A stretch of 64,000 nt of DNA from Candidatus Poribacteria bacterium (GTDB lineage: Bacteria > Poribacteria > WGA-4E > WGA-3G). Shown one piece after another: positions 18,647 through 56,990 of this stretch. Below the pieces are notes generated by a model. The model was not told the DNA's origin. It saw only the letters and a list, made by a program, of their open reading frames with translations, and did no database searches. The position numbers and the translations under genes were made by a program. Every line of letters starts with the position of its first letter. The first letter of the stretch is position 1. The DNA lies in NCBI GenBank assembly GCA_965197475.1, contig CBDANF010000003.1, positions 1,920,001 through 1,984,000 on the forward strand. Reading direction: 5' to 3'.

Positions 18647-19576
18647 TTATCTCTGGAACCCTGATATTGTCGGGTTTCGCTGCGCTCTACCCGACCTACG
18701 AACTTTAGATTTTATTATAGACCAGTAACAACACACAATTAAAACGTTATAATGTCTAATGTGTCCCCACGTGACGCTCAGATGATTTGATGTAGGACTG
18801 ACATCAAGTCCTTGAGCATTCATGTTTTTCTGTACTTCTGCTCCTGTGAGCGCGCGTTCATAGATGCGGAATTCGTCGACATATCCCTGAATAGCATCGG
18901 CATTGACACCGTCAGAACGATCTCCAATAGCAAGTTTAAGTCCGCCTTTTGGGAGTTTACCTCCTGGAACCGCATACTTTTTCTCTTGTTTTCCGTTTAC
19001 ATAGTAGTGAACTGTCGCACCATCGTAGGTGCCGACAAGATGGATCCATTGCTCAAGCGGGATGTCCTCCAGCACATTATGTTGTGCTGCCTTTGTTTCT
19101 TGACCCCCAGCTCTTATGAAAAAACCGTGCTGGTTGTCGTCATCATCATAATACAGACTGGCAACTGCACTATTTGTTGGCTGGTCGTCAAGTGAGATAA
19201 TTCGATTCCAACTATCATCTAAAGCAGTGATATAGACCCAACACTCCAATGTGATTTCATTCCAATCACGGTCAATTTTCGGTGGATCTGAATCCTCAAC
19301 GAGTAAATTATCATCAACACCGTCAAATAGGATACACTCTCCAACTTTACAATCGGCAGCAAGGGCAAGTTCAGGGTCACCTTTGACAATAGCGGATAGT
19401 CCAGAGAATATATCCTCTGCCTGTTTTGCGATTTGCACTGTGTCTTTATCAAACGACCAGTAAGCAACTAAGCCATCTTCAACTGCGCCAACGATAGCAT
19501 CTGCAGGATGTGTTAATACTGTGAAAAACACGAAAAGTATCAAAATTGCGTAGCCTAATGTTGTTTTCTGGATCAT
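18647..19576 (-). CDS. Secreted LamG-like (concanavalin A) domain protein
   Basis: Signal peptide, LVAYWSFD, WIHLVGTYDG, GYVDEFRIYERAL, tail VSPTSNHLSVTWGHIR; the 3' end runs on into a REP. Confidence 0.88.
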   Translation of the reverse strand: MIQKTTLGYAILILFVFFTVLTHPADAIVGAVEDGLVAYWSFDKDTVQIAKQAEDIFSGLSAIVKGDPELALAADCKVGECILFDGVDDNLLVEDSDPPKIDRDWNEITLECWVYITALDDSWNRIISLDDQPTNSAVASLYYDDDDNQHGFFIRAGGQETKAAQHNVLEDIPLEQWIHLVGTYDGATVHYYVNGKQEKKYAVPGGKLPKGGLKLAIGDRSDGVNADAIQGYVDEFRIYERALTGAEVQKNMNAQGLDVSPTSNHLSVTWGHIRHYNVLIVCCYWSIIKSKVRRSGRAQRNPTISGFQR

Positions 19577-26858: not shown

Positions 26859-27953
26859 ATGAAACAGATATTGACACTCCTTGCATTGGCGTTTTTGCTA
26901 TTTGCTGGATTAAGTTGTCAGGAAACCACAGAAGACCCAGATCCAATAGTTGACACATTAACGGGCAGCCTCCAAGGGGAGGTGCAATCAATTGAAGGCG
27001 TATCAATTCAGGTGCGCTTGTTAAAAGACGGACAACTCGTCGCGCAAACCGAAGCAGATGGAAGTTATGAGTTTGTTGAGTTTGAAGAAGGTGATTACAC
27101 GATTCAAATATCAGCAAAAGGCTATGAAATGACAGAAATGAACGTGACTGTCGTGGCGGGGGAAACTGTTTCATTGGACAAAGTGACACTGGAGGCGTTG
27201 GCGGAACCAGTATCACACCTGCGCGGCATTTTAACAGATATGAAAACAGGAAATCCACTGTCCGATGTGCTTGTGCGACTTACCGATAAAGCGGGTGAAG
27301 CGAACGAAGCGTTAACGACTAAAGAAGGTGTTTTCACCTTTGAGAATCTTCCAGTAGATCAAGCATTTACCTTGACGATCATGCATGCAGGTTATGAAGA
27401 TCACGAAGTTGCCGTGCAACCGATTCCCGCTGGTGAGACCTTTGAACAAAATATAGAACTCACCACAGGACCTGAACCGGTGGAACTGGATCCTGGTGAA
27501 GGGCTAAGCACCGGCAGCCAGGCACCAGCTTTTGAGTTGCCTGACGGTAAAGATAAGAAACATGCACTTGCAGATTATATTGGTAGCAAAAAGGTAGTAA
27601 TCGTGTTTTACCGGGGCAGGTTCTGACCGTATTGCCGCGAGCAACTCGGTGAGTTGCAAAAAAAATACGATAAAATTCAAGCTGAAGGCGCAGAACTTAT
27701 CGCTATCAGTTCTGATAGCGTAAAAGAAACGAAAAAGACGACTGATGATGGAAATCTCAAGTATCTGGTACTAGCTGATAATGACATAGAAACGATTAAC
27801 GCTTACAATGTTGTTGATCCAGCGAACAAGAGAATAGCACGAGCATCAAGTTTTGTCATAGATCTGGATGGGAAAATCACGTGGGTATCACTTGACGAAT
27901 GGGATCAGCGCGTACCAACTGCCGAAATTATATCAGAATTAGGTAAGTTCTAA
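26859..27953 (+). CDS. Selenoprotein 1: lipoprotein, two carboxypeptidase-regulatory-like beta-sandwich domains plus a peroxiredoxin-like (AhpC/TSA) domain, UxxC (364 aa, U256)
   Basis: ORFs 26859..27626 and 27654..27953 are in one frame across TGA 27624-27626: VFYRGRF-U-PYC-REQLGELQ; lipobox GLSC (C20). Confidence 0.9.
27641..27657 (+). promoter_or_regulatory. Putative SECIS hairpin 1
   Basis: GCAACTC-GGT-GAGTTGC, 14 nt after TGA; possible lower stem cgtatt/aatacg (27628 / 27664). Confidence 0.82.
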
Positions 27954-28142
27954 TGAATTTTACGATACGGCAACAACAAACACCCGTGCCGACAACGGTA
28001 GAAATAGCGTGGTAAGCAAGTACGTTTACGATGCTAATTCCTGAGTCGGCTCGGACTATTGAAGAGAGTAATACGCTTAGGGGTTGAGGGACGCGTATAA
28101 CCTGAAACACTACAAAACAGATTTTAAATAGGAGTTTTAACT

Positions 28143-29258
28143 ATGGAACGCGTATTGACACCCCTTGGATTAGGACTTTTACTTTTGGTTGCATTGGGTT
28201 GTGGGACGGCGGATAATCCCGTCAGTAAGATTACAGAAATTGAGACTACAACAGGCGCACTACGAGGAAAGGTACAACCAATTGATGGCGTATCATTTCA
28301 GTTCCGCTTATTAAAAGACGGACAACTTGTGGCGCAAACAGAAGGAGATGACGACTTCGTACTAAGAAAGATTGAAGCAGGGGATTACACACTCCGTATC
28401 TCAGCTCAAGGCTACCAAAAAACGGAACTCAACGTGACTGTTATAGTGGGGGAAACTGTTTCATTAGATGAAGTGGTACTTGTGGAATTAGCAGAGCCTG
28501 TCTCGCAACTACATGGGCTTTTAAGGAACGCGAGAACAGGAATACGGCTTCGTAAGGTACTTATCACACTTAGCGATGAGGCGGGAAAAGAATATGAGAC
28601 GTTGACGACAAATGAAGGTGTTTTCACTTTTGAGAATTTGCCCACTTTACAGACATTTATCTTAACAGTCAAGTACGCCGATTACAAACAATACGAACTC
28701 ACGGTGGAACCCATACCTGCCAACGAGACGGTTAAATTGTATATCAAACTTACACCATTGGTGAAAGCAAGGGAATTGGAACCCCTGGAGCCCGGCGAAG
28801 GCTTAAGGATCCATAGCGATGCACCAGAATTTGAATTACCTGATGGCAACGGTGTGTTGCACACACTCGCGGACTATCTTGAAGATGGCAAAAAAGTGGT
28901 ACTTGTCTTTTATTGGGGCAGTGGGTGAGCTGCTTGTCTAACGCAACTCGGTGAGTTGCAAAAGAATTATGACAAAATTCAAGAGGCAGACGCTGAAGTA
29001 ATCGCTATTAGTGTTGATACTATAGCGGAAACAAAACAGACAGTTGAAAATGAAGGTCTTGAGTTCCCGGTACTCTCTGATCAGGAAATGGAAGCAATTT
29101 CCGCTTACAATGTAGTAAATCAAGAAAACCGCAACGTTGCACGACCAGCTACTTTTATTATTGAGTCAGATAGAACAATTGCATGGGTATCTCTTGATAC
29201 TGTGAATGAGCGGGTACCAATAGCAAAAATTCTTATGGAATTAGGTAAACTTTGGTGA
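28143..29258 (+). CDS. Selenoprotein 2: paralogous lipoprotein, beta-sandwich domains plus peroxiredoxin-like domain, UxxC (371 aa, U262)
   Basis: In-frame TGA 28926-28928: VFYWGSG-U-AAC-LTQLGELQ; lipobox ALGC (C20). Confidence 0.88.
28943..28959 (+). promoter_or_regulatory. Putative SECIS hairpin 2
   Basis: GCAACTC-GGT-GAGTTGC, 14 nt after TGA. Confidence 0.82.
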
Positions 29259-29268
29259 AATCTTTTAA

Positions 29269-29655
29269 AACGTGAGTTCGACAAATGCCGTAGGTTGGGT
29301 AGAACAACGTGAAACCCAAAAGGTTGAATTGTTGGGTTTCGCTGTGCTCTACCCATAGGTGTCAATTTAGTGTGCTATATGCAAAAAAGATGCTGATTTG
29401 TGATGAAAGCAGCCCCAGCGGGGCAGCATGCGCGCATGGCATGCTGCATGAGGTGTCTGACAACACGTACACATACACACCTTTCGCCCCGCTGGGGCTT
29501 GAGTTTGGTAGGGGTCGCGTGTCTGGACACCTTTCGCCCCGCTGGGGCTTAGATATCTGAAATATAGGTTTATTTCCTTAAATTGACACCTATGGGTTTC
29601 GCTGTGCTCTACCCAACGGACATCTACATTTGGAACTTATTATTGAACTCACGTT
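29269..29655. mobile_element. REP-carrying MITE (TIR aacgtgagttc) with a second element nested at 29356-29592
   Basis: Outer element is the reverse complement of 56851-56990; inner TIR taggtgtcaattta/taaattgacaccta flanked by a 23-bp direct repeat tgggtttcgctgtgctctaccca. Confidence 0.8.
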
Positions 29656-29693
29656 TTTAAAAACTAATACATACATAAAGGGGTTGTTAATAC

Positions 29694-30260
29694 ATGAAAC
29701 AGACGCAGATATTCTTTGCGTTGGCACTTTTTCTGTTGGGTGCTTTGAGTTGTGGAACAACAGATAATCTTATCAATCAACCGGAAAAGTTGGAGCCGGG
29801 TGAAGGATTGAATATTGGTAGTCAAGCACCAGATTTTGAGTTGCCAGATGGAAACGGTGCGTTACATGCTCTTGCGGATTATATTGGAAACGACAAAAAG
29901 GTGGTAATCGTCTTTTACCGAGGCGGTTGGTGAGGGTCGTGTCTAACGCAACTCGGCGAGTTGCAACAGAACTACGGAAAGATTCAAGCTGCAAACGCAA
30001 AACTTATTGCTATCAGTTCCGATGATGTAAACGCGACACAAACGACGGTTGAAAATAAAGGACTCATATATCCTGTGCTTGCAGATAGCAACAAAGACGT
30101 GATTAACGCCTACAACGTCCTTGATCAAAGCGACACAACTATAGCAAGACCTGCATCTTATATTATTTCGCCGGATGGAACGGTTGCCTGGAAATCGATT
30201 GATACTGCGGCTGTACGGGTGCCAACAGCTACAATCCTCACAGAATTAGGTAAACTCTAA
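29694..30260 (+). CDS. Selenoprotein 3: short lipoprotein with the peroxiredoxin-like domain only, UxxC (188 aa, U80)
   Basis: In-frame TGA 29931-29933: VFYRGGW-U-GSC-LTQLGELQ; lipobox ALSC (C20). Confidence 0.9.
29948..29964 (+). promoter_or_regulatory. Putative SECIS hairpin 3
   Basis: GCAACTC-GGC-GAGTTGC, 14 nt after TGA. Confidence 0.82.
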
Positions 30261-31375
30261 TGAAGTCTTACGATAAGGTAATAGAAAACATTATTGCAGA
30301 CAGTGAAGCGGCAGCACTTAAGCAAGGGACGCTCAACCGCCGCCAATTCCTAAGTCGTATTGGTACTATTGGCGGTGTTGCGCTTAGCGCAGTTCCTGCA
30401 TTCGCGCAAATTGGTGGTGGACGGGTGCTAACCCCTACGACACAAATCGCGGCACTTACACCGGTTGTTGAAGTGATCGGGAAACAAGTTTGGGAAAACG
30501 ATAGACTCAACGAAGATGCTGTTAGCGAGATGGTTGACCGAGCGATGATGAAACTCACTGGTCGAGATACTGCTAAAGAAGCGTGGCGAGACTTTGTACT
30601 GCCGGACCATATTGTCGGCATAAAAATTAACCCGCTTGCCGGTCCAAAGTTAAGCACACACTCCGTGGTCGTCAATAAAATTATTGAGGGTTTATTCAGT
30701 GCGGGCGTTCTCAGAAAACAGATAATTATTTGGGATCGATTTGAGGAACATCTGCTTAATGCCGGCTATCCGATTAAGACAGATGAAGGGGATGTGCGGA
30801 CGCTCGCGTCTGATATGGACGACATCGGCTACGATGATGAAGTGTTCTATGAAACTGAAAAAGATAGTGTTACCAGACGAGAGAATGAAAGCACCCGTTC
30901 TCGATATTCGCGAATTGTCACAGAACAGGTAGATGTGGTTATTAATGTGCCTATCTTGAAACAGCATGATATGGCGGGTGTGAGCGGGTGTTTAAAAAAC
31001 ATGGCTTTCGGCAGTGTGGATAACACGCGGCGATTCCACGGTAAACCGCTTTACTGCAATCCTGCTATTGCCGAAATTTTTGAGCATAAGGTACTGAAAA
31101 AGAAGATCGTTCTAAATATTGTTGATGGATTGGTAGCGTCATTTGATCAAGGACCGACATATCATGCTGAAAGCACGTGGCAATATGGTGGGTTGTTTGT
31201 GAGTGCTGACCCCGTCATTCTTGATACGCTTATCCTTCAAACTGTTAATCAAAAACGCGAAGAATTGGGATTAAGTTCTATGTCAAAATATGCTAACCAC
31301 ATCACCTCAGCAAGCGGTCTCGATTTGGGCAAAAACTCACTTGACCAGGTCAATCTTCAGAAAATTGAGGTATAG
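30260..31375 (+). CDS. DUF362 domain protein with a twin-arginine signal
   Basis: LNRRQFL plus hydrophobic stretch; VGIKIN, INVPILKQH..AGVSGCLKN, ADPVILD; start overlaps the upstream stop (TAATG). Confidence 0.85.
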   Translation: MKSYDKVIENIIADSEAAALKQGTLNRRQFLSRIGTIGGVALSAVPAFAQIGGGRVLTPTTQIAALTPVVEVIGKQVWENDRLNEDAVSEMVDRAMMKLTGRDTAKEAWRDFVLPDHIVGIKINPLAGPKLSTHSVVVNKIIEGLFSAGVLRKQIIIWDRFEEHLLNAGYPIKTDEGDVRTLASDMDDIGYDDEVFYETEKDSVTRRENESTRSRYSRIVTEQVDVVINVPILKQHDMAGVSGCLKNMAFGSVDNTRRFHGKPLYCNPAIAEIFEHKVLKKKIVLNIVDGLVASFDQGPTYHAESTWQYGGLFVSADPVILDTLILQTVNQKREELGLSSMSKYANHITSASGLDLGKNSLDQVNLQKIEV

Positions 31376-31379
31376 TTTC

Positions 31380-31622
31380 ATGAAACGTAAATACATCTCT
31401 ATGCTTATTCTGTTGAGCGTGCTTCTAATCACAGTTGTATTCTCAGGATGCACCGTGACATTTACTCCTAACGACGCGCTGCAGTTTAACCTCTCGGAAC
31501 CGACGGATAAAGCGGTATCCCTTGTTGCGGAATTTGAATCGGGTGAAGAGGATAACGTTGCTGGTGATGTCACACAGAAGACGGGCAGTGTGTGTGCTGG
31601 CGGGGCATGCATCATCTATTGA
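31380..31622 (+). CDS. Small lipoprotein (80 aa) with C-terminal CAGGAC motif
   Basis: Lipobox FSGC (C24), acidic linker, ends GSVCAGGACIIY; ATG 4 nt after the DUF362 stop. Confidence 0.72.
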   Translation: MKRKYISMLILLSVLLITVVFSGCTVTFTPNDALQFNLSEPTDKAVSLVAEFESGEEDNVAGDVTQKTGSVCAGGACIIY

Positions 31623-31630
31623 ATAAGGGT

Positions 31631-31863
31631 TCATTTTCCTTTATTCTTGATCTCTGCTTTTCTCTTAGCAGCGATTTTCTCCCAATCCCATAATAAAACT
31701 GTACCATCATCGCTGCCACTTGCAAGCGTTTTACCATTTCCAAGACGTGCAATTGCCCCTTCAGGTAAACCGACTTGTGTGTTGTCTTGGGCAAAGCTGG
31801 TTGAGAACATCGCTGCTATCAATAGGAACAGGAACGTGATGAAAAAAGTCTATTGGTTCTCAT
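31631..31863 (-). pseudogene. Internally deleted WD40 gene remnant
   Basis: N-terminal AQDNTQVGLPEGAIARLG joined directly to C-terminal GKTLASGSDDGTVLLWDWEK; frameshift in a T run of the signal peptide. Confidence 0.8.
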
Positions 31864-31866
31864 GCG

Positions 31867-34197
31867 TCAATCTCCTTTTTGAGATGGTTGGCTTTCCTCA
31901 TTGGTATTCTCGTGTTTAAGGTTGCCTTTCTGATCAAACTTGAAGGTGCCCGATCCTACACCCTCAACACGAATCTTGAGAACGCCTCTTCTGTCAACCG
32001 TGACATTGACATCATTAACCCTCATTGTACCTCCACCTGAACCAGAAATTGTGGAACTACTTCCATTATGTGTTAGTCTGTATCCTAACCGAAGTTCCTT
32101 AACTTGATAACCGTTCTTATTCAACCAGTTTATTATTGCTTTTGCTTCCTCATTTTTTCCTGCGTATTTTATCGATTTTTGCGGAGTTAACAAACTTCTG
32201 TCAAGGTCTTTTCCTATGTTATCAATTCTTGCTTTAGCAACGATTTTGTCCCAATCCCATAATAGTACTGTACCATCCTCACCCCCGCTATCGAGTATTT
32301 TCCCGTCATGTGAAAACACAAGCGTTTCTACCGATTCTGTATGTCCGGATAGCATTCCCAAACTTTTACCTGTTTCTACATCCCATAACTTAATTGGAGT
32401 GCTCCACATATCCATTCCAGACCCAATAAGAATGGTACCATCAGGTGAAAATACCAATTCATTTTTAAATCCATCTAAATTACCTGGGATTAAGGTAGGT
32501 CCGTCTTCTGATTCTGTGTCTAATTTCCATAAGTGAATACCGTCCCTGCTTACCGTTGCAACCACAGAACTGTCGGGTGAAAATGCCAACGCACTTGTAC
32601 CCTTGATATTGGATGGTGTGATATCACGCTGTGTAGAAATATCCCAAACTTGTGGGTTGCGATGTTCACTTATCGCAGCGAGTCTTTTTCCATCAGGTGA
32701 GAACATCAACTTCCCCCTGAACATACGTTCTTTTGTGTTAAGTTGGAACAATTCAATTCCGGTATTCAGGTGCCACGCTCGAATTTCTTGGCGACTGCTT
32801 CCAGCAAGCATGTTGTCCGGTGAGAATCCAACTGCTGAAGACCAGTTGGCAACTTCCTGCAAAGGAGGGGAAAGTTTTTCGCCTGTCATTATATTGAATA
32901 ATTGAAGAGAGTTAGTACCTCCAGCTCTACTATGCATTCCGAATCCAACCGATTTAAACGCAATCATACCTTCGCTACCACAACACGCAAAAAACTTAGC
33001 ATTTGGTGATAACGCGACTGTCTCGGTGGCATCGCTATGTGCAGCAGAGAAGGTAGACAATTCCTGCCGAGTCTTGAGGCTCCATACATCTACAGTGCCA
33101 TTAAAGGCTGCACTCGCGAGGGTCCCACTTTCTGAAAATGCGACTGCTTTTACCCATTCTGTATGTCCAATGGTAAAAGTAGTAAATTCCTCTCCGTTCT
33201 CTGGATTCCAGAAACGGATTGTTCCATCTGCACTGCCACTGGCAAGACACATACCATAAAGAGGTGTTCCCAAAGGTGCAAAGGCTAAGGCATTGATGGT
33301 GTTTTTGTGTCCCATAAGAGTGGCACGTTCTTGTTTTGTGTCTAAATCCCAGAGTTTGATTACCTTACCAGCATCACCACTGGCAAAAGTATTTCCGTCC
33401 TCTGAGAATGCAACAGCGGTAACCCACGCTGCATGTCCTTTTAGCGTCCCAAGTTCGGCGTGGTTTTGGGTATCCCATAATTTCACAGTTTTGTCCTCAC
33501 TTCCGCTGGCAAATAGTTTTCTATCCGGTGAGAACGCTAACGCCAAAATAGCTGTGTCTCTGCCACGCGCATGCCCCTTGAGAGTTCCCAGATGGCTTTT
33601 CGTGGTTGTGTCCCATAGGTGAATTTCTCCGCCTCGGTCTGCCCGAGCAAGATTGTTGCCATCTTGAGAAAAAGCAATCTTATCGGATAAATTATCTATA
33701 TTGGACTCCGATAATTTTTCACCGGTGTCAGCATGCCAATAGGTCATTTCCTGACCTCTATTTATACTGATTAGTGTCCTGCCATAGAATACCAATGCAG
33801 ATAACACTGTGGGACCCCGAGTTAATGTAATCGTTGAGAGGTTGCTTTTAGTTTCTACGTCCCAAATTTGGATAATAGGGTTGTTAAATCCGCCGCTTGC
33901 GAGCATTTTTCCATCTGGCGAGAATGCAAGTGCGTTCACATGCCCTGTATGTCCAGTGAATAAAGCTGTCTCTTTTCCATTTGGTACGTCGTATAGCCAA
34001 ACTCCAACATCCGTACCAACAGCAAGGCGCGTGCCATCCGGTGAAAACTGCATAATATTGATCCCGCCTTTTCCGAGCCGTGCGATTGCACCTTCAGGTA
34101 AACCTACTTGTGTGTTATCTTGGGCAAAACTGGTTGAGAATATCGCTGCCGTAAATAGAATAGTTAGTAATAATGTGTGTCTATATTTCATTTTCAA
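31867..34197 (-). CDS. Secreted WD40-repeat protein
   Basis: Signal peptide, LPEGAIARLGKG, many GH...LAFSPDG..LASG..D.TV.LWD repeats. Confidence 0.95.
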   Translation of the reverse strand: MKMKYRHTLLLTILFTAAIFSTSFAQDNTQVGLPEGAIARLGKGGINIMQFSPDGTRLAVGTDVGVWLYDVPNGKETALFTGHTGHVNALAFSPDGKMLASGGFNNPIIQIWDVETKSNLSTITLTRGPTVLSALVFYGRTLISINRGQEMTYWHADTGEKLSESNIDNLSDKIAFSQDGNNLARADRGGEIHLWDTTTKSHLGTLKGHARGRDTAILALAFSPDRKLFASGSEDKTVKLWDTQNHAELGTLKGHAAWVTAVAFSEDGNTFASGDAGKVIKLWDLDTKQERATLMGHKNTINALAFAPLGTPLYGMCLASGSADGTIRFWNPENGEEFTTFTIGHTEWVKAVAFSESGTLASAAFNGTVDVWSLKTRQELSTFSAAHSDATETVALSPNAKFFACCGSEGMIAFKSVGFGMHSRAGGTNSLQLFNIMTGEKLSPPLQEVANWSSAVGFSPDNMLAGSSRQEIRAWHLNTGIELFQLNTKERMFRGKLMFSPDGKRLAAISEHRNPQVWDISTQRDITPSNIKGTSALAFSPDSSVVATVSRDGIHLWKLDTESEDGPTLIPGNLDGFKNELVFSPDGTILIGSGMDMWSTPIKLWDVETGKSLGMLSGHTESVETLVFSHDGKILDSGGEDGTVLLWDWDKIVAKARIDNIGKDLDRSLLTPQKSIKYAGKNEEAKAIINWLNKNGYQVKELRLGYRLTHNGSSSTISGSGGGTMRVNDVNVTVDRRGVLKIRVEGVGSGTFKFDQKGNLKHENTNEESQPSQKGD

Positions 34198-36328
34198 TTT
34201 CCTTTGTTTTCTTTTGCTTTGGAGATGATTTTTTCCCAGTCCCAGAGGAGAACGGTGCCATCTTGGCTACCACTCGCGAGTATCTTCCTATCGTGTGAAA
34301 ATACTAATGTTTCTATCGGTTGTGAATGTCCTAACAGGATTCCTAATTTACAACCTGAATCTACATCCCATAATTCAATTTCATCATCCCAAGCATCCGA
34401 TTTTGGATCAAGAAGGATTCTTCCATCGGGTGAGAAAAGTAACATGTTACCTCTCCAATCAAATTTTTTAGGACGAATTTCTGTACGTACCTGCATGCCT
34501 GTATGTGTCACACTGCACAAATCAATGCCTTTAATATGTTTGATAGCAAGCAGAGAACTATCAGGTGAAAATGCAATTCCCGTTACCCAATTGATGTCAG
34601 GCGGTGTAATTTTGTGTTGCGTGAAAACATCCCACACTTCTGGCTTAGAACCAGACCCAGACATAGCCAGGAACTTCCCATTAGGTGAAAACATCAATTT
34701 ACTTTCAAATGATGATAACGATTTAATGCGGAACATCTCAAGTCCAGAGTCAATGCTCCACAAACGTATACCTTGACGACGAGTACCGGCAGCAAGTATT
34801 TTTTTATCTGGTGAGAATGCAAGTGAATTCGGTTCCAGTGTAAGAGAGATAAGTTTGTCTCCTGTGGGTAGAAGCCATAGATGCGTTTCTTTATGTGGTT
34901 TTGAAGTCGCACGTGTGTTTCCACTAATTGAACGTACAATAGTATCAGCACCGTGGCTTGCAAAAAGCGTGGCATCCGCCGTGAAAGCAGATGCTTCAGT
35001 TTTATCGTGATGCGCGATCGATGGAATTGGTAGTTGTCGTCCAGTTTTTACATTCCACATTTGCACTGTACCATTAGATGCTGCACTGGCAAGCGTTGTA
35101 TTATCCGTAGTGAATGCCACCGCCTTAACTCCCGACGTATGTTCTGTGGTAAAAATAGATTGTTCTTGCCCAGTATGTGTGTTCCAGAAACGTATTGTAC
35201 CATCCCAACTCCCACTGGCGAGGATATCTTTGTCAACAGGTGAGAACGCTAAGGCTCTAATGCTGCTCTTATGTCCTGTAAGCATAGCCTTCTGTTCTCC
35301 TTTTTGAACATTCCACAAAAGTATTCGGTTAGCTGTTCCACCGCTTGCGAGTATTGTACTGTCGGGTGAAAAAGCCAATGCATCAACCTTTTCCGTATGT
35401 CCCTTAAGAACAGCACGTTCGGTGCTCGTAGTAGTATCCCATAATCGTACAGTATTGTCATCATGTCCTTGCAACAGTTTTCCTGTCCGGTGAAAATGCC
35501 ACTTGCAACAGTTTTCCTGTCCGGTGAAAATGTAAGTGCATTAACCCCTTTTTGAGGTATCCGCTTTTTCCACGACAGTAACGCGAATGGGGTTTTTGCT
35601 TTGAAAATAGCTAGTTGATACCCTGTGACTGCATCCCATAAGCGGATTTTGCCATTTTCTGGATCACCACTTATAAAGGTTTTATTATCATGGGTAAATG
35701 CTATTAGGTCGCGATAATGTTCGCCATAATAGCCATCTTCCAGTGGCTCATTATCAGCACTTCTACCCTTGTGCTTAGTTATAAGTTTACCGTCGGTAAC
35801 ATCCAAATGGTAAATACAGCTGAATTGGTTGGGAGTAATAAGGGTTTTACTATCCTTAGAAAATGTCATCGCTGGCACACCATCACTACTGCTATATAAA
35901 GGTATGTATAAAAGTTCATTACCAGTTTCGATTTCCCACAGACGTATAACTGAGTTTGATGATCCACCGCTTGCGAGTATGCGATTGTCAGGTGAAAACG
36001 CTAAGGAGTCCACTTGCGCGATTGTATGTACATTCCATTCTTCAAGTACTACCGATTCGATTTCATGATTGTTGACACGAGTTGGCTGCGCGGGGAACAA
36101 AGCCTTAGCGTTACGGGTATTCACATCGTATAACCACACCCCGATGCTCGTTCCAACTGCAAGATACTTGCCATCAGACGAAAACTGCATCACATTTATA
36201 CTGCCTTTTCCGAGGCGTGCAATTGCACCTTCTGGCAGACCGCCTTGTGTGTTATCTTGAGCGAAAATAGTTGAAATTGGAACAAGACTCAGAACTATAA
36301 TTGAGATATATGTATATATTCGGCTCAT
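34194..36328 (-). pseudogene. Secreted WD40-repeat protein frameshifted by a 31-bp duplication
   Basis: cttgcaacagttttcctgtccggtgaaaatg at 35468 and 35502; removing the extra copy restores TFSPDRKTVASGHDDNTVRLWD. Confidence 0.85.
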
Positions 36329-36880: not shown

Positions 36881-38272
36881 ATGAGTTGGAACATTGTCGT
36901 TGTTGTTTCAGATACACTTCGGACAGCATATTTAAGCCCCTATGGTAACGATTGGGTACATACACCGAATTTGGCGCGGTTTGCCGATCAGGGTGTCCGA
37001 TTTACAAATGCACATCCTGAATGTTTGCCAACAATTCCGACACGCCGCACCTTACATACAGGTAGACGTGTTTATCCATTTAGTTCTTATAACCCTGTGC
37101 CATGGGATAATGTCTATACCCCCGGTTGGCAGCCGATGTCTTCGGATGAACCGGCAATCGCTGAATCACTTGTCCGAAATGGGTATCACACAGGCTTTTT
37201 CGCGGATGTGCCGCACTATTTTGTGCCGGGAATGAATTTCACACGCGGATTTCGTCAATGGCAGTTTGTCCGAGGACAAGCCGAAGATAGATACCGTGGT
37301 GGCGCGCACGCTGACCCAAGCCAAGTTGCACGATACCGTGGAAATACAGAGCGAGTCCGCTCTCATATCGTTAACGTTCAACCCGAACGTGCGGAGGAAA
37401 CCTGGCCCACCGCGAGATTGTTCCGATCCGCAATCGAATTTGTAGAACACAATCATAATAATACACCATTTTACCTATATGTTGATGGGTTCACGCCGCA
37501 CGAAACATGGGAAGCACCCATCCACTACTACGACCTTTACGGTAGCCGAGAAGATCGGGAACCCATCTGTCTGAACTTGCCCTACGGTTCACTAAATAAT
37601 GAGGAACTTGAAGCTCGCATTCCAAGCGTTAAAGCTAACTATGCTGGTTTGGTCACCCTTGTGGATACATGGTTTGGAAGATTGGTAGATACCATTGATC
37701 GACTCGGATTGCGCGACAACACGTTGATCGTTTTCCTCAGCGACCACGGCACAAACTTCGCAGAGAATCCTGATAAAGCGACTGGAAAACCAGCAAACTT
37801 CATGTACCCCGGCACGATGGATATTCCGCTGATAGTCAGGCATCCATCTGGTGTAAACGGAGGAACAACGTGTGATGAATTCGTCTATACGCTTGATGTG
37901 CCTGCAACTGTTATGGCAGCAAGTCAAGTTGAACCTACAGGTGAAATTCAAGGACAAAGTCTACTTCCCCTCGTTGAAGGCAAAAGTGGATTTACGTCAC
38001 GTGAATACCTGACTTGTCGCTATGTCAACTCTGTTTGGTATAAAGACGCGAAAAACTGGTATTTTTCAAGCGTTGATCTCAATAATGGAACACGTCTCTT
38101 TGATCTTGAGGCGGACCCGACATGTCAGAATAACATCTCGGGTCAAGGTGCCGAACGGATTGCACTTGCACATGAGCGGATTTTAGCTGATGCTGGCGGA
38201 CATTTACCACACTACTATAAACGTCAGGGCAGAACGGATGCGCTCGGCAGACCACAGTTCGCTGAGGAATAG
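36881..38272 (+). CDS. Sulfatase-like hydrolase (alkaline phosphatase superfamily)
   Basis: VVSDTLR, TPNLARFA, PTIPTRR, PHE, FLSDHG, IPLIVRHP. Confidence 0.88.
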   Translation: MSWNIVVVVSDTLRTAYLSPYGNDWVHTPNLARFADQGVRFTNAHPECLPTIPTRRTLHTGRRVYPFSSYNPVPWDNVYTPGWQPMSSDEPAIAESLVRNGYHTGFFADVPHYFVPGMNFTRGFRQWQFVRGQAEDRYRGGAHADPSQVARYRGNTERVRSHIVNVQPERAEETWPTARLFRSAIEFVEHNHNNTPFYLYVDGFTPHETWEAPIHYYDLYGSREDREPICLNLPYGSLNNEELEARIPSVKANYAGLVTLVDTWFGRLVDTIDRLGLRDNTLIVFLSDHGTNFAENPDKATGKPANFMYPGTMDIPLIVRHPSGVNGGTTCDEFVYTLDVPATVMAASQVEPTGEIQGQSLLPLVEGKSGFTSREYLTCRYVNSVWYKDAKNWYFSSVDLNNGTRLFDLEADPTCQNNISGQGAERIALAHERILADAGGHLPHYYKRQGRTDALGRPQFAEE

Positions 38273-38421: not shown

Positions 38422-40266
38422 ATGAAATTTCACTATTCCCAACTTAGCCATCACCTATATATCCATCACGGGCATGTCAATACCGGCATTCTTCGCGATG
38501 GACACCGCGCTCTTCTCATTGATCCGAGTGGCACATCACTTCAAACAACACTTGCCAAACTGGGAATTACCAACATAGAGCAAATTCTATATACACACCA
38601 CCATCGAGACAATACAGCGGGATTCCCGATTCCAGAAAATGTCCGTATCGGCGTTCCAGAGGCTGAGGCGCAGTGGTTTACGGAGGTAGAACCCTTTTGG
38701 AACGATCCAAAATACCGATGGCATCTCTACAATTGCCACCCACACAATCTCATGCTTGTCAATTCTATCCATGTGACAGATACTTATACCGAAGGCGCGC
38801 AGATTGAGTGGGGACCGGCATCCATAAAAGTGCTTGAAACACATGGACATACCGATGGGAGTGTCACCTATCTCGTTGATGTTGACGAACAGCGTTTCGC
38901 TTTTTCGGGCGATCTCATTTATGACGAAGGTAAAATATGGGAGCTCTATAGTTTACAAAAAGGACAACAGACTACCGACTATCACGGATTTCTTGGCGCG
39001 CGAGATGAGCTAAAAGAAAGTCTTGAGAAGGTTCGCGAGTTATCGCCAACGGCACTTATTCCTACACACGGTGTTGTCATAAAAAATCCTGACGCTGCGA
39101 TTGACAAACTATTTGAGCGATTGACGTATTGTTATGATAAATATGTGCCAATCTCTGCCCTCCGCCACTATTTTCCGAAACTTTTTACCGAATTTGAAGG
39201 ACGCGCTGACCACATGCCTATCCGAGCAGGCAAGCCTCCACCTGATTTCTTGCGCCACTTTGGCACAACATGGTTGATTATATCCAAAACTAAAGAGGCT
39301 TTCGTGATGGATTGCGGTTCACCGAATGTGACAAAACAGATTCAGCAGCTGCAAGCAGACGGTGAAATTTCTGAGGTGACACAGTTCTGGGTGACCCATT
39401 ACCACGATGACCACGTTAATGCTATCCCCGAATTCCAGGACACCTTTCCGTGTGAAACGATAACCGATGCGATTGTTGCTAAAGTAATCACGAATCCAAA
39501 GGCTTTTCGACTCCCTTGTATTTCTCCTGCTGTTACACGAGTGGATCGCGCCACTCATGACGGCGACTCATGGCAGTGGAATGAATTCACGATGACCGCC
39601 TATCATTTTCCGGGACAAACCTATTATCACGGTGGATTGCTTGTTGAGGGACGCGGGACACGGATGTTTTTTGCTGGTGATTCCCTTACAATGGCTGGGA
39701 TTGACAACTACTGTTCAGGCAATCGGAATCTTCTTGGCAAAGATGTCGGTTACGAAAATTGCCTGCGGCGCATTCAACAACTTAAGCCAACCCATATTTT
39801 TAACTGCCATGTCGATCCAGCATTTGACTTTACCGATAAAGAGATCGCCTTTATGTTAGACACCCTTGCTGAACGGGAAAAATGTTATACCGATCTCTTT
39901 CCTTGGGATCACGCAAACTACGGCATGGATGATCAGTGGGTGCGATGTTATCCTTATGAACAGGAAGTTGCTCCTGGTGAAACGGCAGCGTTGCAGGTTG
40001 AGATAACAAACCATTCACTTAAGCCTTGCACGGCAATTGCACAACCTATTCTGCCTGAATCATGGAATGCTGAGATTTCCTCTGCGGAGACAATTATTCC
40101 ACCGAAAGCGGATGGACACATCCAGTTTTCTATTCCGATACCCAAAGTAAAATCCATCTCTGGCAGCAAATCTTCAGAACGGATTGTAATCCCTGTCAAC
40201 ATGACTTATGACGACAAACCATTGGGACAATTTCGTGAAGCGATCTTTGTTCTCACGAGAGGTTAA
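38422..40266 (+). CDS. Tandem double metallo-beta-lactamase-fold hydrolase
   Basis: THHHRD..GHT..GD..PTHG and THYHDDH..PGQT..GD..NCH. Confidence 0.88.
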   Translation: MKFHYSQLSHHLYIHHGHVNTGILRDGHRALLIDPSGTSLQTTLAKLGITNIEQILYTHHHRDNTAGFPIPENVRIGVPEAEAQWFTEVEPFWNDPKYRWHLYNCHPHNLMLVNSIHVTDTYTEGAQIEWGPASIKVLETHGHTDGSVTYLVDVDEQRFAFSGDLIYDEGKIWELYSLQKGQQTTDYHGFLGARDELKESLEKVRELSPTALIPTHGVVIKNPDAAIDKLFERLTYCYDKYVPISALRHYFPKLFTEFEGRADHMPIRAGKPPPDFLRHFGTTWLIISKTKEAFVMDCGSPNVTKQIQQLQADGEISEVTQFWVTHYHDDHVNAIPEFQDTFPCETITDAIVAKVITNPKAFRLPCISPAVTRVDRATHDGDSWQWNEFTMTAYHFPGQTYYHGGLLVEGRGTRMFFAGDSLTMAGIDNYCSGNRNLLGKDVGYENCLRRIQQLKPTHIFNCHVDPAFDFTDKEIAFMLDTLAEREKCYTDLFPWDHANYGMDDQWVRCYPYEQEVAPGETAALQVEITNHSLKPCTAIAQPILPESWNAEISSAETIIPPKADGHIQFSIPIPKVKSISGSKSSERIVIPVNMTYDDKPLGQFREAIFVLTRG

Positions 40267-40270
40267 AATT

Positions 40271-40690
40271 TTGCTAAACTTATCCCATTCAACAGTTGAC
40301 ATCGCTATAACGTGTAGCAACTTTGAGGAGTCGTTAGACTTCTACCACAACAAATTGGGTTTTGAGATCGTGTTGGACCTTGAGATTCCGGACGCATTAG
40401 CGCAAAATGTGGGACTTGCGCCAACAGGATTTCGACAAGTGCGCCTAAAGGCAGGCAATACGCTTATCAAGCTGATGGATATAGAATCGCCACCGCCGAC
40501 ACCAGCAAACAAATTCTCTGCAGGTGTTCGTTGGCTTACCTTTTTTGTAGTGGATATTCAGCAAACTATCGAAAACTTGAAACAGAACGGTGTGGAATTT
40601 CTTTCTGAACCCGTAAGCGCACCGGACGCTGCTGGCGTGGTGTGCGCAAAAGACCCTGACAGCATTCTAATTGAACTTGTGCAGATATGA
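40271..40690 (+). CDS. VOC (glyoxalase) family protein
   Basis: ESLDFYHNKLGF, LKQNGVEF, KDPDSILIELVQ. Confidence 0.85.
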   Translation: MLNLSHSTVDIAITCSNFEESLDFYHNKLGFEIVLDLEIPDALAQNVGLAPTGFRQVRLKAGNTLIKLMDIESPPPTPANKFSAGVRWLTFFVVDIQQTIENLKQNGVEFLSEPVSAPDAAGVVCAKDPDSILIELVQI

Positions 40691-41664: not shown

Positions 41665-42006
41665 GTCCCTTTAATACATTTGCATGTTGCCAAAAGGTTA
41701 TGTTATAATTATTCTAAGTTTGTTGGATAGCATTTTGCATTGTGGCACTCTCTGCCACCCAGCACTATCCATGGCTGTTAAAGCGGGAAATACAGGTAAC
41801 AGGTGCAACCCTGAAAAATACTAAGTGCAGGAAAATTGTTCCTTGCTCTTAGGCAGTGGGTCGGCATCACGGATTGTATAGGACCGCATTAGTAGCAACT
41901 TAGGTTATAAAAGACGAGCCTTTTTGACATAATCAGTCAAAAGTAACAAAATTAAAATTTAAACAAAACACACACATAAACAGATAAATTAAAATAGGAG
42001 AAAATC

Positions 42007-42348
42007 ATGAAAACTCAGGTTCGAGAGAAAAATGGCATCACAATTTTGGAACCCAATGGAAAAATAATGGGGCACTCCGCATCAGAATTCAAGAAAACTA
42101 TCTCACCGCAGATAGAGGCTTCCAATAAACCACGTATCCTCATCAATCTTGAGGGTGTTGATAAGATGGACAGTTCAGGGCTCGGTGTCCTCATCGGCGC
42201 GTATGCCGCTGTAACACAGAAACAAGGTCGTATAGGGATCATCCATGTCGGAAAAAACATCAAAAATCTGATTGTTATTAGCCGACTTGTAAGGCTCTTT
42301 GAACATTTCGACACTGAGGAAGCTGCTCTCTCTGCATTGGCAGCTTGA
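42007..42348 (+). CDS. STAS domain anti-sigma factor antagonist
   Basis: INLEGVDKMDSSGLGVL motif. Confidence 0.92.
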   Translation: MKTQVREKNGITILEPNGKIMGHSASEFKKTISPQIEASNKPRILINLEGVDKMDSSGLGVLIGAYAAVTQKQGRIGIIHVGKNIKNLIVISRLVRLFEHFDTEEAALSALAA

Positions 42349-42755
42349 CAAACCCACCCCATATTTGGAGCGTCCATAGTTTTGCTATGTGACGCTCCAA
42401 ACTTTTTAGACTCAACAGATTTTTATTTGTATGTGTCGCTAACCCACACAATTATCCTACCTTTCCTCTCCTCCAAAAAACATATCTACTGTTTATCTCA
42501 TAAATCATTATACTTGTTCCTTCAGAGAATCCAACTTCACCGTAGGAGGCTCTGTAACTACCCGTTGTTTCCGTTCATCAGACATGGCGAGGCACAGTGC
42601 CCTCGCCCTACAATTGCTTTTAGAAATGTGACAAAAGATTTTGAATAATGTGATATAATGTTGTAGATAGTGAGTTTTGACTGTTATCAGGTTATCTGAA
42701 GTAGAAATGCTGACGAAAACTAAATTACATTGTTCGTTTTCACAGTAGGAATGTT

Positions 42756-50044: not shown

Positions 50045-51030
50045 CGCTCATGTCAAGAGTAAGTGCTTTTGACGAGTTTTGCTATAAAATCAACACTGAC
50101 AGCTTTTAGATTCATGACGAACTCACAGATTGCGACGTAACCGGCGAGGAACTTTTTATGAACGCCACGAAAGGGACGAAGGAAGTTTCGCAGCGTCGTC
50201 CAGGCACCTTCAATCGTCCTTGTATGGATCTCGTAAAGACCATCACCGTCTGCGTCTCTTGCCCACTCGCCATCCTTATGGAGAACAATCTCACGGGCGC
50301 GCTGAATACGGTTATAGCCACGCCAACCATCCGTATACACCGTTGAAGTCGGCAACGTCCACTGATGAACGTGTGTTGAAAGCGTCGCAGAATCGGTGTG
50401 CCGCACAACACGTAATCTCAGGAGACCGCTTTCGCGACCTTTCGTCCCAACAATAGGCGGACGATCATTGTCATAAGTCCCATGTCCCCTGCGTTTATTG
50501 CCACGCCGACGCGGCGGATCCGAAGCATCAACGTGCTTATCGCCTTTTTCACCGGCGTTTTGAAACATCTCATCTGTTTCGACTTCAGCATCAGGTAAAG
50601 CAGCTTCGGGTTGTATCTGCTCTGCCGAAGTTTGGAGTTTACGTCTTATAGAAAGAACGGTTTGACGACTTAGACCCAGTTCACACCCGAGTTGTGCACT
50701 TGAAACACCTTGACAGACACCGCGCAAAAGCAGAACGACCTGTGAGGGACGAAACTGCGTGCCAGCAAAGACCGTCCCGGTATAGAGGTTGTAGATGCTC
50801 TCACAGTGTTTGCAGCGATACACTTGTAGACCACTTGTTTCAGTCGGACGGAACTTGCGTGCCTCCGCCACGCTCGCTTGGCATTTTGGGCAACACAGCC
50901 CTTGAAGGTGGAAATGATCCAACACCCACGCTTGAGTTTTTTCTTCATCCAGGAGAGATTGTATTGGAAAGTCCATAGGTAACACGCTAACATAACTTTG
51001 AAAAAATAGCACTTACTTTTTACATGAGCC
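50045..51030 (-). mobile_element. IS1595-family insertion sequence (transposase 50053..51012)
   Basis: Zn ribbon CPKC/CKHC, VETDE, VYTDGW, IEGAW; TIR gctcatgt.aa.agtaagtgct; 8-bp TSD aagttttt. Confidence 0.9.
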
Positions 51031-51038
51031 AAGTTTTT

Positions 51039-52129
51039 CAGGACTTACGCAATAATCTACAATTATGTTATACTGTTCTATTATGACTACATTTACACTT
51101 TCTAAAAAGAAGCACCACTTATTTTCTGATTATTGTCAATTTTTGTTAGCGAGTTTCACTAATTTTACACAAACCTATTTTGCAAACCATACGGAGAAGT
51201 GGAGCCATGATCAACTCAATCGTTTCCTGAGAAACGAAAACATTCCTTCAAGCGAACTCTGGGAATCTGTCAAAGACGACATTGCGTTTGATAAAGATGG
51301 ATACCTTATCTTTGACGATGTTGTGCTGTCAAAAATATATTCAAAACTGATTGAAGCTGCCTACCCTCAATGGAGTGGTAGCGACAAAAAGGTCATTGAA
51401 GGCATCGGTATTGTCACGTGTGTCTATGTTAACCCAAAGACACACGAGTATTGGATCATTGATTACCGCATTTTTGACAAAGACCCTGATGGTAAATCCA
51501 AAATTGATCATTTACTTGATATGTTGCACGATGCTTACTTCAAGAAACAACTCTCGTTTCGGACAGTGCTAATGGATGCTTGGTATGTATCCATGAAAGT
51601 AATGAAAGCGATTGCGGCACTTTCCAAGGTCTACTATGCGCCCCTGAAACGAAACAGGCTTGTAAATGATACGGATGGTGTTGAACCGCACCAGCAAGTC
51701 CAAGATTTATCTTGGTCTCCATCAGAAACGACACAAGGCAAACGCGTGCATATCAAAAGGTTTCCAAAAGGGTATCAAGTGAAGTTGTTCCGGATTGTGT
51801 CTGATACAGGACGCACGGAATATATTGTGACAAACGATTTATCTCAATCGGATGCGAAAGCGACAAAACAACAGTGTCGGGTTCGCTGGAAGATTGAGCA
51901 ACTTCATCGTGAAATCAAACAATTAACCGGTATTGACAAATGTCAATGCCGCAAACTGCGTGCCCAACGAAACCATATTGCGTGTTGTTTCCAGGTCTGG
52001 GTCTGCTTGAAGCGTGCTGCCCGGAAAATCACTCAAACGATTTACGAACTCAAACAAAGTTTATTGGATGATTACGGACGACATCAACTCTCTAATCCTT
52101 CAATAATCTTCAAAACTGCGTAAGTCCTG
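51039..52129 (+). mobile_element. IS701-family insertion sequence (transposase 51065..52123)
   Basis: IFDD, LMDAWY, RWKIEQLHREIKQ; TIR caggacttacgca; TSD gttttt. Confidence 0.9.
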
Positions 52130-53740: not shown

Positions 53741-53825
53741 TTTAATTTGGTTTTCGGCATGATATGTGGTATCATTTAAAGAGAAAATCATTTATCATTT
53801 CACGAGTCACTATAGGAGGTTTTTA

Positions 53826-54290
53826 ATGGCAGAAATAGGAAAAGCTGCTCCAGATTTCAATTTATCAGGATCTACAGATCAGGAAGATACAGATGTTGCG
53901 TTGGCTGATTTTGAAGGGAAAAAACTCGTAGTTTTGTTTTATCCACTCGATTTTTCACCTGTGTGTTCGGAGCAAGTTCCAGATTTTAATGAGAACTTAG
54001 ATGCTATCCGTGCAAAAGGTGCGGATGTCATCGCTATTAATCGCGACTCAACGTTTGCACACAAAGCATGGAGTGCGGCACTCGGTGGTATCGGTTTCCC
54101 GCTACTCTCAGATATGAATCTTGAAGTATCAAAACAATATGGAATGGCACTTGAAGAAGTCGGTATAACGACGCGCGGCGTTTTTATTATTGACGGAACA
54201 GGTAAAGTAGCCTTCAAACACGTTGAAGATGCACCACCAGACAATACACTGACAGCAGAACAGGTCTTAAGCGAACTTGACAAACTTTAA
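53826..54290 (+). CDS. Peroxiredoxin (AhpE/AhpC-TSA type, Cys form)
   Basis: APDFNL, FYPLDFSPVC, FPLLSD, RGVFIID. Confidence 0.9.
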   Translation: MAEIGKAAPDFNLSGSTDQEDTDVALADFEGKKLVVLFYPLDFSPVCSEQVPDFNENLDAIRAKGADVIAINRDSTFAHKAWSAALGGIGFPLLSDMNLEVSKQYGMALEEVGITTRGVFIIDGTGKVAFKHVEDAPPDNTLTAEQVLSELDKL

Positions 54291-56850: not shown

Positions 56851-56990
56851 AACGTGAGTTCGATAATAAGATCCAAATGTAGATGTAGGTTGGGTAGAGC
56901 GCAGCGAAACCCAACAACTCAACCGTTGGGTGTGAAATAGTTGGGTTTCACGTTGTTCTACCAACCTACGGTATTTGTCAAACTCACGTT
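56851..56990. mobile_element. REP-carrying MITE
   Basis: TIR aacgtgagtt/aactcacgtt enclosing an inverted GTAG-REP pair. Confidence 0.75.

Follow-up and report, generated by a model that had tools for sequence, protein, structure and literature searches.

We describe a short hairpin that lies just downstream of an in-frame TGA in each of three neighbouring genes of a little-studied phylum of sponge symbionts, the Poribacteria, and that very probably acts as a bacterial selenocysteine insertion sequence (SECIS) element. The genes lie in a 64,000-nucleotide (nt) stretch of Candidatus Poribacteria bacterium (assembly GCA_965197475.1, contig CBDANF010000003.1, positions 1,920,001 to 1,984,000 of the forward strand), which is referred to as the window throughout; all coordinates are window positions unless a related locus is named.

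Three genes with an in-frame TGA

The three genes, their TGA codons and their hairpins are arranged on one strand as follows, where U stands for selenocysteine (Sec).

26859..27953, + strand: gene 1, 364 residues; two CarboxypepD_reg-like domains and an AhpC/TSA redoxin domain; exported-looking; predicted Sec at residue 256, in the motif U-P-Y-C
27624..27626, + strand: in-frame TGA of gene 1, read as selenocysteine (translation with TGA as U)
27641..27657, + strand: hairpin of gene 1, GCAACTCGGTGAGTTGC; 7-bp stem GCAACTC/GAGTTGC, loop GGT
28143..29258, + strand: gene 2, 371 residues; architecture as in gene 1; predicted Sec at residue 262, in U-A-A-C
28926..28928, + strand: in-frame TGA of gene 2, read as selenocysteine
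28943..28959, + strand: hairpin of gene 2, GCAACTCGGTGAGTTGC; loop GGT
29256..29258, + strand: true stop of gene 2, also a TGA
29694..30260, + strand: gene 3, 188 residues; signal-peptide-like N-terminus and AhpC/TSA domain only; predicted Sec at residue 80, in U-G-S-C
29931..29933, + strand: in-frame TGA of gene 3, read as selenocysteine
29948..29964, + strand: hairpin of gene 3, GCAACTCGGCGAGTTGC; loop GGC

The Pfam model AhpC-TSA (PF00578) matches straight across the TGA of each gene, above its curated cut-off (gene 1, residues 219-342, E 8e-32; gene 2, residues 225-348, E 1.2e-31; gene 3, residues 41-166, E 8.7e-33), and a CarboxypepD_reg domain is recognized in gene 1 with an E value of 2.9e-23. 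All three N-termini consist of a hydrophobic, signal-peptide-like segment followed by a Cys, so that the products may be exported lipoproteins. In an alignment with Cys-containing homologues annotated as 'peroxiredoxin-like family' proteins, the U column coincides with the first Cys of a CxxC motif in all five. Peroxiredoxins of the BCP type carry Ser or Thr at this position, as seen in the structure 2cx3 and in a further window gene that serves here for contrast only and that adjoins a tRNA-Gly gene:

53766..54290, + strand: fourth AhpC/TSA gene, BCP-like, with the motif S-P-V-C; TCA in place of TGA; no hairpin

Elsewhere in the window TGA is an ordinary stop codon, terminating 16 of the 54 long frames, among them a WD40 gene (31867-34197) and a glyoxalase gene (40208-40690); a genetic code in which TGA is a sense codon is excluded for this reason.

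The hairpins themselves are strikingly uniform. Each starts 14 nt past the TGA, which places its 3-nt loop 21 nt past the TGA, and the sole difference among the three copies is the third loop base (T, T and C). Read in frame, the element encodes (x)Q-L-G-E-L(Q) with the codons CAA CTC GGY GAG TTG, and when the DNA of the three paralogous domains is aligned (mean column identity 82%), no conserved stretch is longer. The pattern GCAACTCGGYGAGTTGC occurs at 27641, 28943 and 29948 and otherwise, over the whole 64 kb, only as the reverse-strand images of these same palindromic sites; none of 100 dinucleotide-preserving shuffles reached the observed count (mean 0.02). No such hairpin follows the terminal TGA of gene 2 in a scan of 7-bp stems after every TGA, and the fold at that site is unrelated. 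An earlier note made from the bare sequence had described the hairpin (its sequence, positions, spacing, loop-only difference and QLGEL codons) and had reported its absence from the true stop of gene 2; the description is correct in every element, and the stem scan and the fold bear out the absence.

Occurrence of the hairpin in related genomes

Relatives were taken from a single scan of species-representative genomes, in which the best 80 of 170 confirmed relatives yielded 79 loci (77 titled Poribacteria and two 'uncultured bacterium'; 977,365 nt in all); the remaining 90 could include Cys forms. With the gene 3 domain as tblastn query, 106 peroxiredoxin-like (Prx-like) domains covering the site were found in these loci and the window. 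The site is occupied by TGA in 104 of them, 101 in the loci and three in the window, and the sequence NCAACTC-NNN-GAGTTGC stands exactly 14 nt past the TGA in every one of the 104. The TGA genes of the loci share 45-80% protein identity with gene 3, and many loci hold tandem arrays of two to three copies, as the window does. The two exceptions are distant paralogues, one with Cys (L077:5237, 30% identity to gene 3) and one with Ser (the fourth AhpC/TSA gene, at 53955, 32% identity), and both lack the QLxEL peptide as well as the hairpin; at the corresponding place the Ser gene reads GCAAGTT CCA GATTTTA.

The family's proteins are missing or halved in databases because nearly all public gene calls are broken at the TGA or show Trp (W) there. 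The nearest database proteins are fragments that either end just ahead of the site (…FYRGGW) or begin just past it (MCLTQLGELQ…), and W occupies the Sec position in the 216-residue public entries P0006-P0013 (…FGTWGFC…). We take these to be gene-calling artefacts at the TGA, the W entries probably arising where short contigs were called with code 4. The QLGEL peptide is also kept in two Cys relatives, P0039 (WCPHCKKQLGEL) and P0075 (WCPHCQHQLGEL). A tblastn search of plasmids with P0039 returned 75 records, all below 32% identity and hence too distant for a comparison of codon conservation.

Synonymous sites within the hairpin are frozen

The codons of the hairpin are far more constrained than those around them. 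Across the 104 genes Gln is encoded by CAA in 100, the first Leu by CTC in 103, Glu by GAG in all 104 (GAG makes up about 17% in the flanks) and the second Leu by TTG in 103 (about 10% in the flanks). Other invariant or near-invariant residues of the domain are free in their codons: Phe is TTT in 62%, Tyr TAT in 53% and Cys TGT in 65%, Arg uses all six of its codons, and so does the Leu at +24. Glu outside the hairpin favours GAA (93% at +23, 85% at +15). The complete set CAA-CTC-x-GAG-TTG is observed in 98 of 104 genes against 0.31 expected from flank codon usage. Seventeen columns have a single residue in 90% or more of the genes and use more than one codon; ranked by codon fixation, the four hairpin columns take ranks 1-4 among them (chance 1 in 2,380). 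Conservation thus goes beyond protein constraint and codon bias, because synonymous sites are frozen, partly on non-preferred codons.

Such variation as exists is mostly of a kind that preserves the stem. CAG in four genes turns an A-U into a G-U pair, CTT in one turns C-G into U-G, and an inner pair is broken in a single gene (L026, TTA). The outer-pair base, contributed by the third position of the preceding codon, is G in 88 genes. The stem measures 7 bp in 88 genes, 6 bp in 15 and 5 bp in one, and the loop 3 nt in all 104. Its residue is Gly in 88, Val in 15 and Ser in one, and the loops read GGT (59), GGC (16), GGA (12), GGG (1), GTT (8), GTG (7) and AGT (1), with G in first position in 103 genes and in second position in the remaining AGT.

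Agreement with the bacterial SECIS model

The bacterial SECIS (bSECIS) model originates from bSECISearch (Zhang and Gladyshev 2005) and is restated in the 2026 review PMC13188914 (Fig. 2 legend). There it specifies a loop of 3-9 nt, an upper stem of 4-16 bp, a UGA-to-loop distance of 16-37 nt, a G within the first two loop positions, mostly as G[G|U]N, and a minimum free energy of at most -7.5 kcal/mol. Loop and stem size, loop G and the 21-nt spacing agree with this model in all 104 genes. The energy of the bare hairpin lies at or below the limit in 88 genes, the window copies included, and above it in 16.

A second family with a hairpin of the same design

The same loci contain another family with in-frame TGA codons, comprising small HMA-domain proteins with the motif GMT-U-xx-C, in which the Pfam HMA domain spans the TGA; 71 U sites and four Cys repeats were counted, every one in loci L034-L078 and outside the window. 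The proteins are encoded within a few kb of Prx-like genes and are either small and signal-peptide-bearing or lipoprotein-like, or have multiple HMA domains that mix Sec and Cys repeats. Examples are:

L074:1826-2224, - strand: HMA-family gene
L074:1367-1807, - strand: HMA-family gene
L072:1858-3108, - strand: HMA-family gene
L037:1491-2339, + strand: HMA-family gene

In 56 of 69 complete sites the hairpin is GTGCA-GGN-TGCAC, starting 18 nt past the TGA; another 11 have GTGC-AGGAA-GCAC and two have other forms. The stem differs from that of the Prx-like genes and the design is the same: in both, a perfect stem of few base pairs carries a G-rich triloop at 21-23 nt from the UGA. Within the multi-HMA proteins, three of the four Cys repeats are without a hairpin. 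This contrast between Sec and Cys repeats, the nearest available form of a Sec/Cys test, favours the reading of the hairpin as a SECIS.

These two families bear directly on a further proposal of the earlier note, that the hairpin is a lineage-wide SECIS and could serve as a probe for the rest of the selenoproteome. The core CAACTC-N3-GAGTTG, with at most one mismatch, gave 104 coding-strand sites in the 977,365 nt, all of them Prx-like and 14 nt past an in-frame TGA. A covariance model derived from the 104 Prx-like sites recovered these at 43-75 bits; its next best match in the same loci scored 16.2 bits (E 5.8), and no HMA site was recovered. A loose structural descriptor returned 127 sites, of which 103 were Prx-like, 22 belonged to the HMA family and two were spurious; it alone brought the HMA family to light. 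As a probe the literal element therefore fails, since both the exact motif and the covariance model find Prx-like genes only and miss about 70 HMA Sec sites. It is specific to its gene family because it is fixed by the QLxEL code; judging from the two sets of hairpins, only the generic bacterial design (a G-first triloop and its distance from the UGA) carries over between families, and the stem sequence is free.

For further families, 1,701 in-frame TGA contexts from the 977 kb were clustered, and inspection by eye of the top 15 of 203 clusters revealed no hairpin beyond those of the Prx-like and HMA families. The other clusters were rejected as selenoproteins; they look like off-frame translations of conserved genes.

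Selenocysteine machinery

Genes for Sec insertion stand next to a hairpin-bearing gene in one related locus, L033:

L033:4870-6480: Prx-like Sec gene with hairpin; its N-terminal part matches Big_5 and, weakly, CopC
L033:7478-9493: SelB, 671 residues; GTP_EFTU, SelB beta-barrel and winged-helix 2 and 3 domains; TIGR00475 at 354.7 bits against a cut-off of 242
L033:9528-9617: tRNA-Sec; Rfam RF01852 over its full length at 78.1 bits against 47; ARAGORN tRNA-SeC, anticodon tca

The selB gene begins 1 kb downstream of the Prx-like gene, and the tRNA gene follows 35 nt past selB. The literature agrees with the use of Sec in this lineage: Poribacteria are among nine phyla for which PMC13582414 reports Sec-type hydrogenase variants, and according to PMC5649159 most sponge-symbiont bins contain the COGs of both SelA and SelB, which are enriched there.

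Surroundings in the window

Gene 3 overlaps the gene that follows it, which suggests that the two are co-translated in one operon:

30260..31375: DUF362 gene; its ATG shares one base with the TAA stop of gene 3

The spacer between genes 2 and 3 (29263-29661) is a nest of inverted repeats whose outer arms lie at 29263-29284 and 29640-29661. It contains two repeated units, one of 23 nt (29333 and 29593) and one of 24 nt (29477 and 29527). Four copies of a 22-nt core from the 23-nt unit lie in the window, where none are expected; two of them are outside the spacer, at 18672-18693 and 56891-56912. The 24-nt unit was not found in the 79 loci. From its sequence, the spacer repeat looks like a small dispersed repeat, or one resembling a miniature inverted-repeat transposable element, inserted between the paralogues. 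Two adjacent transposase genes occur at 50053-52123, one IS1595-like (DDE_Tnp_IS1595, - strand) and one of the DDE_Tnp_1 type (+ strand).

Downstream of the selenoprotein cluster lie three consecutive large WD40-repeat genes (776, 426 and 359 residues; 31867-36328, - strand), surrounded by genes for a sulfatase, GFO/IDH/MocA oxidoreductases and xylose-isomerase-like TIM barrels, a gene content that we take to be typical of Poribacteria. Three other window frames were considered as read-through candidates and rejected: that at 41998-42648 contains a STAS gene whose domain is finished before its TGA at 42346, so that the gene is complete ahead of that codon, and no domain was found in those at 31275-31919 and 36936-37445.

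Interpretation of the hairpin as a SECIS element

We consider it very probable that the 17-nt hairpin is the bacterial SECIS of three tandem genes for Prx-like U-x-x-C thiol:disulfide oxidoreductases, and infer that it binds SelB and directs Sec insertion. In line with the known bacterial pathway, SelB carrying Sec-tRNA(Sec) and GTP would bind the apical stem-loop, with its 7-bp stem and G-G/U-N triloop, as the ribosome nears. The position of the loop 21 nt past the UGA would present the tRNA at the A site upon arrival of the UGA, leading to insertion of Sec in place of termination, and Sec would stand in for the nucleophilic, N-terminal Cys of a CxxC redox motif like that of ResA/TlpA. The near-invariance of the hairpin in more than 100 genes is then explained by an RNA that is pinned twice, by base pairing and by the conserved helix residues Q-L-x-E-L.

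This interpretation is well supported because the hairpin is present in 104 of 104 TGA genes, its codons are frozen, it fits the bacterial model, SelB and tRNA-Sec exist in the lineage, and a second family shows the same design. The suggestion of a SECIS in the earlier note has gained strong comparative support, with SelB binding as a putative step; the sequence is not, however, a SECIS common to the whole lineage.

A number of observations weigh against this interpretation and temper it. ARAGORN found no tRNA-Sec in the window and Pfam no sel gene among 42 of its open reading frames, and the machinery was found in one related locus only. An Rfam scan of the window at the gathering threshold returned three tRNAs and no SECIS family. 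In the HMA family, one Cys-type repeat (L037:2148) retains a weakened hairpin. The energetics are modest: the bare 17-mer of the window copies folds at -7.7 kcal/mol, just at the -7.5 threshold of the model, and loss of the outer pair in 16 of the 104 genes leaves a bare hairpin of only -2.5 to -5.4 kcal/mol. In their 67-nt contexts the window hairpins reach -14.7 to -16.4 kcal/mol, which is unremarkable against shuffles (z = -1.47, -1.73 and -0.32). RNAfold places different outer pairs in the three window copies, and there is no conserved lower stem, RNAalifold giving a 6-bp core only. Finally, covariation, which the earlier note had named as a test, was analysed across the 104 genes and yielded no two-sided compensatory change in any of the seven pairs, three of which never vary and two of which vary on one side only; covariation scores of the stem equal those of shuffles, and the RNAalifold covariation term is -0.04. 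Compensatory covariation is lacking because the stem hardly varies, and invariant pairs say nothing for or against pairing. The claim of an RNA structure consequently rests on conservation and on the comparison between the two families.

Alternative explanations

The alternative that fares best accepts recoding and disputes the amino acid: the hairpin may recode UGA via SelB and yet lead to insertion of Cys by a SelC*-type tRNA(ReC), either always or under selenium scarcity. PMC13582414 describes tRNA(ReC)-like tRNAs that decode UGA as Cys with a downstream SECIS in several phyla, beside canonical SelC, and sequence alone does not separate Sec from Cys insertion. The one tRNA found in the lineage nevertheless fits the Rfam tRNA-Sec model from end to end (78.1 bits) and is called tRNA-SeC with anticodon tca, and the 977 kb hold no second such tRNA, a tiny sample next to whole genomes. 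We regard Cys insertion as highly improbable.

Perhaps, instead, the conservation has nothing to do with recoding and stems from protein constraint together with codon bias, from gene conversion among paralogues, or from some other function of the RNA or DNA such as a pause or binding site. The QLxEL peptide is indeed conserved, even in the Cys relatives P0039 and P0075, the paralogues are in tandem, covariation is absent and the folds have ordinary z-scores. Protein constraint and codon bias, however, do not account for codons that are non-preferred (GAG in 104 of 104 genes against about 17%, TTG in 103 of 104 against about 10%), and gene conversion cannot keep 17 nt constant in 79 species-level genomes when synonymous change has saturated the sequence on either side. 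That all 104 occurrences of the motif in 977,365 nt stand 14 nt past an in-frame TGA, and that an unrelated TGA family, the HMA proteins, has a hairpin of the same design which its Cys repeats mostly lack, likewise speak for a tie to the TGA. An explanation apart from recoding is, in our judgement, very unlikely.

That the TGAs are real stops in split or decaying pseudogenes, or encode Trp or Gly (codes 4 or 25), is hardly credible: public gene callers do split these genes and some 216-residue entries show W, but TGA falls on the exact catalytic position in 104 of 106 homologues from 79 genomes, with the reading frame intact before and after it and a Pfam domain running across, many ordinary window genes end in TGA, and SelB and tRNA-Sec are present in the lineage.

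Implications

With the hairpin taken as a SECIS, the annotation rule 'TGA, 14 nt, NCAACTC-G[G/T]N-GAGTTGC' repairs all 104 genes. The element also offers a clean natural example of a SECIS frozen by dual coding, with the identical codon set in 98 of 104 genes where 0.3 would be expected, and concrete selenoprotein genes can now be added to the enrichment of SelA and SelB in sponge-symbiont bins (PMC5649159).

It is tempting to go further and speculate that Poribacteria possess, phylum-wide, tandemly amplified, exported Prx-like/TlpA-like U-x-x-C selenoproteins, some as fusions with immunoglobulin-like or CopC-like domains and often beside HMA-type GMT-U-xx-C binders, and that these form an undescribed selenium-dependent system of redox and metal handling outside the cytoplasm, with each SECIS locked by dual coding. 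We consider this combined picture possible but rather doubtful. If it were true, the lock would make reversion from Sec to Cys rare, 104 of 106 domains having kept Sec, and about 175 natural SECIS variants would be available from which to read the recognition rules of one SelB.

Comparison with known systems

Literature searches on Poribacteria and on these protein families gave no account of the genes in that phylum or of their hairpin; Sec genes of Poribacteria may be among the entries in the supplementary tables of PMC13582414 and PMC5649159. The protein family as such is familiar: 'Prx-like thiol:disulfide oxidoreductase, PF00578, UxxC' is established as a family of predicted selenoproteins and appears in Table 1 of PMC13188914 and Table 2 of PMC2398784, with 225 sequences in the Global Ocean Sampling survey according to the latter table. 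The genes described here share with these selenoproteins ('Prx-like 1') the AhpC/TSA domain, the U-x-x-C motif with U for the first Cys, the existence of Cys homologues and the marine setting. They differ in their tandem arrays of two to three and in the fusion, in genes 1 and 2 of the window, to a pair of CarboxypepD_reg-like domains that follow a signal-peptide-like N-terminus. No NCBIfam model, selenoprotein-specific ones included, is matched by the window proteins at its curated cut-off; against SelL_rel_redox, WAxxUGC_long, redoxin_TUGYCR and PrxU they score 36-42 bits at best, with cut-offs of 100-300.

The HMA proteins likewise have known counterparts in the MerP/CopZ-type HMA selenoproteins (NCBIfam UxxU_metal_bind and MerT_CopZ_Se), with which they share the HMA domain and a Sec in the metal-binding motif GMT-C-xx-C; the family in the loci, however, has UxxC and not UxxU. 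A 'Mercuric transport protein MerP' selenoprotein is listed with two sequences in Table 2 of PMC2398784. The HMA proteins of the loci remain under the NCBIfam cut-offs (CopZ_AFE_1862, 56 against 85; UxxU_metal_bind, 49 against 95; MerP, 49 against 92.6).

As an RNA element, the Prx-like hairpin sits at the minimal end of the bSECIS model, being a triloop hairpin that lacks bulges, internal loops and a conserved lower stem, and it departs from that model in being nearly sequence-invariant throughout the phylum and in coding for QLxEL at the same time. In the SECIS of Escherichia coli fdhF, SelB binds an in-frame apical hairpin whose loop begins with GGU about 20 nt after the UGA. Unlike the Prx-like hairpin, the fdhF element combines a loop of 4 nt with a bulged U and a lower helix of greater length. 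The known mechanism of bacterial Sec insertion is unchanged by these findings: the hairpin is very probably a conventional bacterial SECIS in a selenoprotein family already on record, described here for the first time from Poribacteria, and what sets it apart is chiefly an invariance that dual coding explains.

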